The translations under genes and the position numbers were made by a program. The notes beneath the pieces are model-generated. The model was not told the origin of the DNA and made no database searches. It saw only the letters and a list, made by a program, of their open reading frames with translations. Positions 55,373 through 60,728 of a stretch of 64,000 bases of DNA are shown here, piece after piece. The DNA is from Lama glama (lineage: Eukaryota): contig CM052850.1 of assembly GCA_028534125.1 (NCBI GenBank), positions 25,978,001-26,042,000 on the forward strand. The letters run 5' to 3'. Positions within the stretch are counted from its first letter, which is position 1; every line of letters begins with the position of its first letter.

Positions 55373-55554
55373 CTAGGGGCCGGGGCAGCCGCCAGACTCC
55401 TCGTGCCGCGCCAGGAGTGCCATGCGGGAGAAGGTCTTGGCACAGCGCTTGCACTGGTACTTCTTCGTGTCCGAGTGCGTCTGCAGGTGGGCCCGCAGGT
55501 TGGAGCGGTCGGCGAAGGCCCTGCTGCAGTGAGGGCAGGCGTAGGGCTTCTCAC
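55373..55554 (-). CDS. SNAI3: SNAI3 exon 3 (coding part; ZF4, ZF5)
   Basis: cccacag acceptor; EKPYACPHC...[30 protein letters not shown]. Confidence 0.94.
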
Positions 55555-58500
55555 CTGTGGGAGGGGAGGGGACAGGTGACCTTCGGAGTGGCCTGTTGCA
55601 GCGGCCAGGACAACACTGCAGAAGGCCACCCAGACTCACGGGTGAGTAACCCGTGCCCCACCGCAGAGGCTCGCTCAGTCCCTCGTGGAGGTTGTAATGC
55701 CTTCATCTCCTTGCCCCTCCCTCGGAGATAAGGGGCGGGGGCCTTGGCACTTGCCGCAGGGGGAGATGCTGGGGCCGAGGGGTCGTGCAAGAGTGAAGGG
55801 CTTGCACAGACCTTGGCTGGGGCACCCGGCTTCTGCTGGAGCCCTCCTGGGGCCTCTGCCACCAGCCCTGGGCGGCAGGTGCTCTGGGAGCCTCCTGGCA
55901 GCTGCCCTGCCCCCTGAAGGCCAGTGGAGGGGACCCATGGGGCTTGCACAGAATCTGCCACACAGGTAGTTGGAAGGAGTGACCCCGGGTCCGAGTGCAT
56001 CTCCAAGTGGGCCCTGCACAAGAGCCAGGCACTCGGGGCCGGGGGGAGTCCCGTGTCCTCCAGGCCGCCTCCATGAGGGTGACCAGGGATTTGCACACGG
56101 TCCTTCTGTTGGGACCTTGGCCCCAGGCTGACCCTGGCAAGTCTAAAAGGAAGGGTTGTTGACCGTCATCTGTCCAGCTCTGCCGGCGTGGAGTGGCCTC
56201 TGGTTCTGCAGCCCTAGAGGCTCCCGGGAGGCACCAGCCTGCAGTCTCTGCGTCCTTGCTGCCTGACGCCTGCATCCCAGCCCAGGGCATGGATCCCTGA
56301 CAGTGTGGCAGGGTGCCTGGGGACACCCTCTGCGAGGGGTCAAGGAAAGCCGGATGGATTTCCAACCTGGAAAAAGACTCCTGCAAAACCCCACTTTCCG
56401 TCATCTGCCGGGCTGTGACTCATGGACCCATGACCTGAGGGTCGGGGAGGCTCCAGTGACAAGACGTGTGTGTCGTCAGCGCCAGGCCCAGAGCTGAGTC
56501 TCTGTTCCTGTCTCTCACTCTTTCGCTGTGTGCTTGACAAAGTCCTGGACTCAAGATGGTGGCCTGGGTTGAGGTCCAGCTCAGCCACTGGCTGCCCTTG
56601 GGCACCGCCGGGCCCTCTGCTCTTCCTGGACAGTGCTGGTAATCTGCAGGGTGAAGGATGTGCCCTCCACCCCCTGCTTGACTCTTCCACAACCACCCCG
56701 CTCTCCTCGTCTGCTGTGTGGGGTCCTCACCCCCAAGCCAGGCCTTTCTGCCTCCTCGCCTCTCCGGCTGCTCCAGAATTCTGGAAGGCCGTGGCCTGTG
56801 AGCAGTGTCCATCCTGCGCTTAGCCAGGTGTTGTGAGCCGAGTCGTGTCTCCAGAAAAATACGTCCACGTCCTCAACCTGGGTACCTGTGAGTGTGGCCT
56901 TATTTGGAAGCTGGGGTTTTGCAGATGTTGTCAGGTTGAGATGAGGTCACACTGGAGTACATGGGCCCTGAATGCCATGTGCCTGGTGTTGTTATGACAA
57001 GAGATCAGTGTGGACACAGGCCGTGTGGGGACAGAGGCAGAGACTGGAGTGACTTGGCCACAAGGAATACCTGGGGCCACAGGGGCCGGGAGAGACAGGA
57101 AGAACCTCCCCACCAGACCTGGAGGGACTGTGGCCCTGCGACACCTCGATCGTGGACTCCTGGCTGCGGACTGCGAGGGAGACCCGGGTGTGTGGGCCTC
57201 TGTGCCGCAGCCTTAGGACGCTGGGAAGCAGAAGCCCTGTGTGGCTGGCTGCCTGGCCCTCCCTCCTTTCTAGGCCCAGCCCCGGCCCCACCAGCCCCTC
57301 GCCTGCCCTGGCGCCTACCCGTGTGGGTCCGGAGGTGGCCTTGCAGCAGCCAGGGCCTGGAGAAGGCCTTGCCACAGACGGCACAGAGGCAGGGCAGCGT
57401 GTGTGTCCGGATGTGCATCTTGAGAGCGCCCAGGCTGCCATACTCCTTGTCGCAGAACTGGCAGGTGAAACAGCGCTGGGCCTGCAGGGGGCACCGCAGC
57501 TGCCGGCGCCTGGCCAGCCTGGCCGGCGCGTGGGCAGGTCTGTGGCCGTGGAGGGCCTGCTCAGCCCCCAGCAGGCGGCCTGGGGTCTGGGCCCCGTCTG
57601 TGCCCAGGAGCGGGGGCCAGCGCATGGGCAGGGCCAGCAGCGGGGGCAGGTTGAGGTGGTTCAGGCTGTCTCTGAGGGGTGCGCTGAGGGCCCGGCCGGC
57701 CCGGGGGTCCGCCCGGCTGACGTCCAGGGCTTCTGGCCCTGAAGCCCCCAGAGCTTCCTCGTTGCACAGCAGGGGCAGGGAGGTGTGAGCGATGACGGAG
57801 GCGTGGTCCCAGGGCTGGGGAGGGTCACCAGGCGAGGACGGGGCCACCTTGTCTGGGAAGATGAGGGGCACCACTGGCCCCCCGCAGGCAGAACAGGCAC
57901 CACTGATGTCTGGGAGGGGAGAGGACAACACAGGTGAGCCCTGAGTCCCCGTGTTGCGTGTTCCCGACTGGCATTCCCAGCGACCCCCACACCCGCCGTT
58001 TAAGCCCTGGGCAGCCCCGTGTGAGGGTGTGGGCTGCAGCCCAGAGCAGGAATCTCAGTTCCCCTTTAAAAATAGGGAAAGAGAAGCACCTCGCAGCAGC
58101 CCTCAGGGGCCAAGGAAGGAAGCCTCCGCCCACCTCAGGACCAGCTCGGGGCGAGTCCTCTGGGCACCCACGCAGCGTTAACTCAAGGGGCTTGGCAACG
58201 TGTGCAATAACTAACTAGCCTCCAGTCATCTCCTGGTCACCCCTCGCCCGTCGTGATGTGGGTGGACACAGCTCCTGCGGATATTCCAGTCAAGATGGTC
58301 TGTCCCGGACCCCTGTCTCCCGGCCTCGCTCCCATAATTGTGGTCCAGCACGCCTCATGCTGGACCCAGGTGGCAGGAGCCCCCAGAGCAAAAAGGCCAG
58401 CAGGCAGAGCTGAGTTCTGTGTTTCCCCAAAGCCCAGCTCTCCAAACAGCCCTCAGCTCGTTTCTTGTCCTTCATGCGTTGCCATCAATTCCTGGCCATT

Positions 58501-60728
58501 TCTAGAAGCGTGCCAAGGCTGTGCGTGGAGAAAGACAACCCACAAAATGGAGAAGAGACTTGCAAATCAGACATCTGGGGAGGGTTAGTGTCCAGAAACG
58601 GACAAAGAACCCCCACAACCGAGCGATAAAAAGACACATGACGACGTGAACCGACGTTTCTCCAAAGAAGATACACACGCGGCCAACAAGCGCGGGAAGA
58701 AGCCGACGCTCGACACCCCTAGCCGTCAGGGCCGCAGCGTACAGCTGCGCGGAGGTTCCACGTCACAGCCCCAGCACCGGTAGGGTTGAAAACAGGCGGT
58801 TACAAGCGCTGATGAGGACGCAGAGAAGCGGGAAAGTTAAGGAAGGTCCTCACACTCCACCGTCCTGACTCGTCGTCCTCCACCCCAGTCTTCCCAACTA
58901 CAAAGTCAACACGCCAGGTTTCTGTCCTCCCAGAAGTGGGGGCTGGACAGTGACTGGCTGAGAGATGATGTCCAGGGAGGTTCTGGAGAGACGGCACTGG
59001 GGTTTCCGGAGAGTCCAGGACCCCCCACTCCACAGAGAAGCTTCACAACAGGCCCCTCTATGGAGAAAAAAAGTCACCTTCCTCAAGTCTCGGAGGTTCT
59101 GCCTGGCCCCAGGCATCACCGTGGAGAAAGCCCCTGTCGGGGGGCCTGTGCCGACTGCAGCGGGAGGCTGGGGCAGGGGCAGCAGTGCCAGGTGCTACTG
59201 ACCGTGTGCTCCTGCCGGTACTTTAAATGCTTCCCCAGGGGATACCCGGGTTAGCTAGACTTTTAATTCATTCTGCAGCTCAGATCCATGGGGGAAGAGA
59301 CTTCAAAGTTCCCCTCTGGCTTCAGGGGTTCCCTGGGGAGGCCTAAAAAGGCCCTTATTTAAGAGTGAAGAGTAGGGAAGCCCAAATCCAGCATCTCAGG
59401 TCTACCTGCGGTAACTGCTGGGCAGAAAGAGAGCTGGTGCGACCGGTGGGGGGCAAGGGAGGGGAGCGGGGCAGGAGGACTGGCAGCTCTGAGGCTGCTC
59501 TCCTCCAGCCACTGGTGCACAGCCGCCTAGACTAGCACGTTCAGGGGTAAGGCAGGGTACACTGTGGGACCAGTTTCCAGACAATGGTTTCTGAACTTTT
59601 GAAACTATGACTTGTGTAAATTTAATTTTCATTACACATATATATCTGAAACAAAATTTTCCTTTACCATGAGCACTGTGCTCTGACGGCTTCTGTTCTT
59701 TTTCATTTTATAAGATTGCTGGTGGTGACTCTAACTGGATCTCAAAGTGTGACTGAGGATCCTGGCCCTAGAATGTGCCCCCTGGTGGCAGCCCAGACTC
59801 AGGGACCCACCAGCCAGGACTCCCCCACCACCCGCACCCCCCCAGTCCTGAGAGGGCTGAAGGGCTCTGAGAGGGCATCAACTGGGGGCCCTGGCCTCCC
59901 TAATGTTCCTCCCCTCCGAGTCCCCCAGAGGGGCTTCACCCCAAGGAGCTGCAGAGCTGGGGGACGGCTCGACCACTCTAGAGAGGCCTTTGCCCTGGGA
60001 CCTTCCCATGTCCCTGTGCCTAGCAGGGAATGGGAATGAGCGGACTGTCCTGGTTCCTGGACGCCCGTCTCCCCACCTGGGTGAAAGCTGCAGCCCCGTA
60101 GCCCAGCCTGCCTTGAGCAACCTCCACTGGGGTGAGGGGAGGCGGGAGAGAAGGTGTGAAGAGGCGTTGGAGGAGCCCAGTGGAACGCAGGCTGGGCCTG
60201 GGTACCACAGGGCCCCAGGGTCACTCTTCCTGTCCCCTCTGCTCACTGCTCAAGCCAGGATGCTCTGGTGGGCCCTTGGAGGACAGCCTGGTGGTCACCC
60301 TTTGTGTCTCTCCCCAACATCCATGGGACCCTATCAAACTTCTTGCACCAGGAATGACTCTGATGTCCCCTTTGCTGGGATGGGAGCACGAGGCCATAGG
60401 GAGAGAGCCCCCAGGGTGACTGGGGGCCTGGAAATTTCTCTAAGCGGAGAGAGAAACCTTACCCAGTCTGCCCCGATTCGAGGTCCAGATCCCCAAAGTG
60501 GACAAGGTGCCCGCGGGTCACATTCCTGCTTCTAGCTCCAGGATCTCTGGACCCTCCTCCCACCTGGGACAGGTGTCCTCGCTTCCGAGGAACTCGCCCC
60601 TCCTGCCGCTCAGGAGTGGAGCCCTGGGTGGCGGGGAGCCCGCAGCACCTACCTCTTTGCGTCTCCAGCTGCCCGTAATTGGGGACCCTGTGACTGGAGT
60701 GCGTCTTCACCAGGAAGGAGCGCGGCAT
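55373..60728 (-). CDS. SNAI3: Snail family zinc finger 3 (exons 60653-60728, 57319-57909, 55373-55554; 282 aa)
   Basis: SNAG domain MPRSFLVK; C2H2 fingers [67 protein letters not shown]; 849 nt in frame; synteny with MVD. Confidence 0.95.
56829..57230 (+). mobile_element. MaLR solo LTR (MLT1C-like) in SNAI3 intron 2
   Basis: gtacctgtgagtgtggccttatttggaa...tttgcagatg...gatgaggtcacactgga...gaggcagagactggagtga...gtggccctgcgacacct. Confidence 0.7.
57319..57909 (-). CDS. SNAI3: SNAI3 exon 2
   Basis: ctcccag acceptor; [10 protein letters not shown]...[12 protein letters not shown]...ZF2, ZF3; G|gtaggc donor. Confidence 0.93.
58525..58830 (+). mobile_element. Old L1 ORF2 3' fragment in SNAI3 intron 1
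   Basis: aagacaacccacaaaatggagaagagacttgcaaatc...tctccaaagaagatacacacgcggccaacaagc. Confidence 0.6.
59582..59760. mobile_element. hAT-Charlie-type DNA transposon remnant
   Basis: AT-rich island caatggtttctgaacttt...acacatatatatctgaaacaaaa...ttctgttct...gctggtggtgac; resembles the Charlie4-like consensus from memory. Confidence 0.45.

Follow-up and report, generated by a model that had tools for sequence, protein, structure and literature searches.

Recurrent, finger-specific loss of zinc finger 1 within the SNAI3 orthologue group, including an otherwise intact SNAI3 gene in camelids

The SNAI3 gene of the llama (Lama glama) encodes a Snail protein in which the first zinc finger (ZF1) has been dismantled and the remainder of the coding sequence is clean. 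The feature is one instance of a recurrent, finger-specific loss inside the SNAI3 orthologue group. Most probably, relaxed selection let an accessory ZF1 decay in an intact SNAI3, of which the SNAG repressor motif and fingers 2–5 (ZF2–ZF5) were kept. Judged from its sequence, camelid SNAI3 is likely still an E-box repressor acting via SNAG and these four fingers.

Within the 64,000-nucleotide stretch of llama DNA analysed here (the window), SNAI3 occupies the minus strand and consists of three exons. Its features are (positions of the window):

60653..60728, minus strand: SNAI3 exon 1, coding part, with the start codon and an intact SNAG repressor motif
60702-60728, minus strand: SNAG motif, SNAI3 residues 1-9 (extent after PMC5401887), N-terminus like that of other mammals
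57319..57909, minus strand: SNAI3 exon 2, 591 nt, with AG acceptor, GT donor and open frame; variable N-terminal region, ZF1 remnant, ZF2 and ZF3
57491..57553, minus strand: ZF1 remnant, L145-C165; a 9-codon deletion takes Cys1, Cys2 is replaced by Gly and two His by Arg, terminal Cys165 is kept
57401..57463, minus strand: ZF2, C175-H195, intact C2H2
57323..57385, minus strand: ZF3, C201-H221, intact C2H2
55373..55554, minus strand: SNAI3 exon 3, coding to stop, with ZF4 and ZF5
55475..55537, minus strand: ZF4, C229-H249, intact C2H2
55385..55453, minus strand: ZF5, C257-C279, C2HC type, with A268 at helix position +2 and G278; predicted folded

That frame, splice sites, SNAG domain and ZF2–4 are clean, as the original prediction had it, is borne out by GT-AG borders of both introns, a frame open over 282 amino acids and the intact C2H2 motifs. 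Frameshifts, premature stops, broken splice sites and gene-wide relaxation were sought in camelid SNAI3 as marks of a pseudogene, and none was found. The product is 100% identical to SNAI3 of the alpaca (Vicugna pacos; NCBI, P0002), and its best homologue match is an annotated SNAI3, again at 100%; identity to equid, bat and primate records ranges between 73 and 82%. Genes of the SNAI1, SNAI2 and Scratch types, which we take to be these paralogues from their characteristic features, lie on other contigs of the same genome. Together with an exon-2 N-terminal region that resembles annotated SNAI3 most closely, this places the window gene in the SNAI3 orthologue group. By definition, a Snail protein carries four or more C-terminal zinc fingers, of the C2H2 type or its C2HC variant (PMC4507178); the window protein has three C2H2 fingers (ZF2–4) and a C2HC finger (ZF5), besides the N-terminal SNAG motif typical of the family. 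A ZF1 of the pattern C-x2-C-x12-H-x3-H or -x4-C, as in five-finger members, is absent from it.

The remnant of ZF1 is held by residues 140–168 (57568-57482), and the letters of this segment are as first reported; the human SNAI3 sequence that had been given for comparison is that of database record P0296. Compared with horse, rhino, bat, dog and human, camelid SNAI3 lacks nine codons in frame, including the one for Cys1, and the deletion is best placed between 57554 and 57553. Cys2 has become Gly (GGC at 57547), and both the His (CGC at 57508) and the His three residues further (CGG at 57496) have become Arg, all of which agrees with the lesion originally described. The accompanying statement that all four zinc ligands are lost goes one ligand too far. 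An intact ZF1 ends in His-x3-His-Cys. Both terminal candidates are present in 126 of the 144 intact mammalian ZF1, only the Cys in 16 and only the His in two; the 28 intact non-mammalian ZF1 comprise 11 with both and 17 with Cys only. Over all 172 intact vertebrate ZF1, 170 have a Cys four residues past the first His, and 139 have a His three residues past it. The fourth ligand is therefore more likely to be the terminal Cys than the second His, which would probably make ZF1 a finger of the C2HC type, as ZF5 is. Because this better-kept last ligand (C165) is retained in camelids, three of the four would be lost.

Among nine SNAI3 proteins searched with the Pfam zf-C2H2 model, three stretches were recognised in alpaca, camel, cow, minke whale, sperm whale and cat, and four in gibbon, bat and fox. 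AlphaFold2 predicted four folded fingers for the alpaca protein and an unfolded ZF1 remnant, residues 1–169 having a pLDDT <50; an equid control built from the same alignment rows had five folded fingers, including a β-β-α finger at about residues 151–172 with a pLDDT near 69. Overall confidence of both models was low (pTM 0.22 and 0.24), and only the local folds count.

To survey the orthologue group, 364 protein records were collected from homologue searches and cluster listings, and 200 named mammalian records, approximately one per species, were chosen (unnamed assemblies, extra isoforms, duplicates, most partial models and the odd whale models P0003, P0051 and P0112 were left out). ZF1 was intact in 144 records and broken in 56. 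It was broken in all 33 Cetartiodactyla (Tylopoda 2/2, Suina 3/3, Ruminantia 13/13, hippo 1/1, Cetacea 14/14), in all 15 Feliformia and both Xenarthra, and in one record each of giant pangolin, hedgehog, treeshrew, tenrec, elephant shrew and aardvark. It was intact in Perissodactyla (3/3), Caniformia (25/25), Chiroptera (28/28), Primates (27/27), Rodentia (44/44), Lagomorpha (3/3), Paenungulata (3/3), marsupials (4/4) and platypus. A camelid-specific event is thereby ruled out, as is a degenerate ZF1 general to mammalian SNAI3. What stands of the original proposal is a SNAI1-like four-finger architecture with relaxed selection on ZF1; what does not is its being peculiar to this lineage. ZF2 and ZF3 were intact in 200 of 200 mammalian records and ZF4 in 198, the remaining two having truncated or alternative ends; all 33 cetartiodactyl and all 15 feliform records have fingers 2–4. 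Outside mammals, ZF1 was broken in 13 of 41 records, including four crocodilian records, two ratites, two agamids, two snakes, a girdled lizard, a turtle and a caecilian. As the records are related, loss counts do not equal independent events; the losses in crocodilians and ratites (P0178, P0257–P0259, P0183, P0196) could be a single archosaur-wide loss or several.

The kind of lesion differs between clades. Suines, ruminants and hippo have in common a 3-residue deletion that takes Cys1; most whales lack nine residues in total and sperm whales 15, and the camelid 9-residue gap lies further upstream than that of whales. Hyenas and meerkat have Gly for Cys1, and in felids 14 helix residues are missing, the remnant being deleted outright in 12 of 12. 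Ruminants and hippo retain Cys2, both His and the terminal Cys, and residual zinc binding may persist at their ZF1. Camelids, ruminants, hippo and whales still have the terminal Cys, along with the C-terminal half of the finger helix. Because lesions differ between clades, at least nine losses in mammals are implied on the accepted species tree; several species support each of three among the nine, a single predicted protein stands behind each of the other six, and such singletons could be gene-model errors. The camelid gap may be either one event of nine codons or the shared three plus six more, as the proteins fit both. At ZF1 helix position −1, Thr is replaced by Ala in camelids, suines and 12 of 13 ruminants, though not in whales, which hints that erosion began in the common cetartiodactyl stem.

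Selection on the individual domains was compared through Fitch steps, counted per region on trees built within each of nine clades; these clades comprise 181 of the 198 records that remained once two with broken ends had been set aside. The test is crude, as it relies on amino-acid parsimony and on trees from the same data and is alignment-sensitive beside indels. ZF1 and the N-terminal region accumulated 51 and 240 steps, respectively, in the two loss clades, versus 80 and 987 in the seven clades that keep the finger (odds ratio 2.6, p = 1.6e-6), and the excess was discernible in each loss clade alone (Cetartiodactyla, p = 1.7e-5; Feliformia, p = 0.006). For ZF2–5, the corresponding figures were 59 and 240 versus 198 and 987 (odds ratio 1.2, p = 0.23), and exon 1 also did not differ in rate (p = 0.59). 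With faster change in ZF1 and none in ZF2–5 or exon 1, relaxation is thus confined to ZF1. Relative to the N-terminal region, the remnant evolves at a rate of 1.42 in Cetartiodactyla and 2.05 in Feliformia. Where kept, ZF1 is conserved, with a rate between 0.13 and 0.78 of that of the N-terminal region and with the helix residues T-A-G-R in 27/27 primates, 25/25 caniforms, 27/28 bats and 42/43 rodents, and therefore has some role in these clades and is not universally dispensable. Helix positions −1, 2, 3 and 6 are invariant in 198 of 198 records for ZF3 and ZF4, and in 195 of 198 for ZF2.

Two changes in ZF5, A268 and G278, lay outside the original prediction. A268 (55418-55420) occupies helix position +2, which often touches DNA in C2H2 fingers. 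All 33 cetartiodactyls, but none of the 165 other mammals, have Ala in place of Ser here, and the sole other case seen was one of 41 non-mammals, the axolotl. Four further residues were clade-diagnostic in the same scan. G278 (55388-55390) takes the place, at His+5, of the terminal Cys found in most Snail proteins, and is adjoined by C279 (the pair spanning 55385-55390). When this adjacent pair was scored in 195 mammalian records (5 of the 200 were left out), both Cys were present in 155, only the first in 33, only the second in seven (two camelids, tarsier and four marsupials) and neither in none. The two adjacent Cys seem interchangeable, and Cys279 likely serves as the ZF5 ligand in camelids, leaving the finger intact. 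That camelid ZF5 is dead was considered and is unlikely, since one of the two Cys is always kept and the finger is predicted to fold.

In a plausible course of events, selection on ZF1 would first have slackened in the cetartiodactyl stem or close to it. In-frame deletion would then have taken out Cys1 (9 codons in camelids; 3 in suines, ruminants and hippo; 9 altogether in most whales, but 15 in sperm whales), and the remnant would have drifted thereafter. Frameshifts would have been purged because fingers 2–5 lie downstream in the same frame, and in-frame lesions alone would have been tolerated. According to the literature, DNA binding and nuclear import reside in the last four Snail fingers. 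Loss of Snai3 in mice has little effect and is partly mitigated by Snai2 (PMC3713067). In the llama genome, SNAI2 has ZF1 and SNAI1 lacks it. These roles of the last four fingers, together with the overlap with SNAI2, would make loss of ZF1 nearly neutral.

A more far-reaching alternative is adaptive, namely, that loss of ZF1 and the Ser-to-Ala exchange in ZF5 together moved cetartiodactyl SNAI3 to a SNAI1-like mode of DNA binding. Stem cetartiodactyls would then have rebuilt the finger array, and in cattle, pigs, camels and whales the target specificity of SNAI3 would be SNAI1-like or new; we regard both the shift and this consequence as improbable, albeit the least so among the competing accounts. 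The exchange is fixed in exactly this clade, and four-finger Snail1 relies on its ZF1–2 whereas five-finger Snail2 relies on ZF3–4 (review, PMC12284022), so that finger number may alter which fingers dominate. However, Ser is retained in the feliforms (15/15) and xenarthrans (2/2) that have also lost ZF1, the four further diagnostic residues are what any long stem branch is expected to yield, the contact residues of ZF2–4 are unaltered and the same as in other mammals, and the remnant erodes differently after its loss, as drift would give. A link between the ZF5 exchange and the loss of ZF1 thus remains unproven. Of the convergence on SNAI1 that had originally been envisaged, the finger number holds, but a SNAI1-like function finds no support.

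The remnant could also have acquired a function that needs no zinc, such as that of a basic helix or an import signal, considering that it is Arg-rich in camelids; persistence of the C-terminal helix half and terminal Cys in camelids, ruminants, hippo and whales, and the speculation in PMC4507178 that ZF1 makes a protein-protein contact, would be in line with this. Against it speaks that the remnant outpaces even the variable N-terminal region, is gone altogether in felids and is predicted to be disordered in alpaca, and that the predominance of A/T-to-G/C changes (7/8) in a locus of 61% GC can yield Arg, Gly, Ala and Pro without selection, which leaves such a role quite unlikely. Decay of the whole gene toward a pseudogene in the loss lineages, with ZF1 as first casualty, is less credible still. 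Snai3-null mice are near normal (PMC3713067) and camelids have lost the usual terminal Cys of ZF5, but ZF2–5 and exon 1 change no faster in the loss clades, fingers 2–4 are kept in every cetartiodactyl and feliform record, and ZF5 always has one of its two adjacent Cys; database proteins are biased to intact genes, however, and this count would overlook any species in which SNAI3 is dead. An error of assembly or annotation, finally, which might account for some of the singleton losses in other mammals, deserves next to no credence for camelids. The lesion is common to the records of Vicugna and Camelus (P0033, which differs from the alpaca protein by five residues overall), and this match across genera refutes it there. 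The 31 other cetartiodactyl records have related but different in-frame lesions. Moreover, 14 DNA runs from four organisms contained 0.95–1.00 of the sampled words of 57200-58000, 7 of the 14 being possible sources of this very DNA. Four RNA runs contained 0.35–0.40 of the words of the stretch, which is a word match only and was not counted toward expression. Relaxed selection on an accessory finger, with the rest of SNAI3 maintained, is the explanation preferred here.

The five-finger SNAI3 proteins of human (P0296), horse (P0253), bats (P0260), dog (P0245) and mouse (P0310) have the same SNAG motif, exon-2 N-terminal region and ZF2–5 as the camelid protein. The latter differs from them in a ZF1 without Cys1, Cys2 and His, in being 9–10 amino acids shorter, and in a ZF5 that has Ala at +2 and its terminal Cys shifted. 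Mammalian SNAI1 (PDB 3w5k chain B; L003 in this genome) consists, like camelid SNAI3, of SNAG and four fingers, the first having been lost, but it is a paralogue and differs in the N-terminal region; where ZF1 would lie, it shows no zinc ligands in pairwise alignment, whereas the SNAI3 remnant is still recognisable. SNAI2 (L002), a paralogue whose function overlaps that of SNAI3 in mice (PMC3713067), has kept five fingers. Two of the three Snail paralogues in this genome are thus without ZF1, and as SNAI2 alone keeps all five fingers, camelids are left with one five-finger Snail only. In the wider set of loci L002–L005 (contigs C28, C22 and C27 of genome G000), the SNAI2-type and two Scratch-type genes are five-fingered and the SNAI1-type gene lacks the first finger. 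A penguin protein annotated as SNAI1 (P0170) has an intact first finger, which fits a lineage-limited loss in SNAI1.

Loss of the first finger is an already recognised theme in the Snail family. Repeated loss and plasticity of this finger have been described (Kerner 2009, PMC2688512), Nematostella SNAILB has lost it (PMC4507178), and the three Snail proteins (Snail1–3) of gecko have five fingers each (PMC5401887). The losses named there concern human SNAIL1 and non-bilaterian cases (PMC2688512, PMC4507178); here, loss recurs in a single orthologue group. The available excerpts of these two articles make no mention of ZF1 loss in SNAI3 of artiodactyls, cats or other mammals. A literature search covering main texts, with most subscription journals outside its coverage, found no published report of ZF1 loss in mammalian SNAI3, which is weak evidence that it is absent from print.

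As a rule, SNAI3 is regarded as having five fingers. This view fails for cattle, sheep, pigs, camels, whales and cats, and results obtained with mouse and human SNAI3 may not transfer to livestock or cats. On the role of the first Snail finger, PMC4507178 only speculates; that role becomes directly testable in sister clades whose versions of this one orthologue differ in ZF1, for example, horse and cow or dog and cat. The CDH1 reporter proposed originally would be a poor readout for SNAI3, because human SNAIL3 does not repress it even with five fingers; EMT, too, is only poorly induced by this protein (PMC3956896). If SNAI3 had been retuned in cetartiodactyls after all, the other independent losses of ZF1 would serve as replicate natural experiments on finger number versus function among Snail paralogues. 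The impact is limited in that mice can largely do without SNAI3, the family is already known for losing its first finger and the proteins are already in public databases.

Seven of the eight unambiguous base changes in camelid ZF1 run from A/T to G/C. Over all inferred changes, 22 run in this direction and eight in reverse (p = 0.016), with ratios of 7:1 in ZF1, 7:0 in ZF2–5 and linker, and 8:7 in the N-terminus; ancestral codons were guessed from outgroup amino acids for this count, and codons for Cys, His, Tyr and Lys favour the A/T-to-G/C direction. GC-biased gene conversion as a driver of the camelid changes is hinted at, at most. Intron 1 contains an unusually CpG-rich stretch (58520-58830), maybe the result of GC-biased drift in this 61% GC region; by eye it resembles a decayed 3′ fragment of LINE-1 ORF2. 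A further record, P0034, combines a camel-type ZF1 remnant with a SNAI1-like C-terminus and has no intron-derived sequence at the exon 2–3 junction; it is probably a chimeric transcript assembly across shared fingers.
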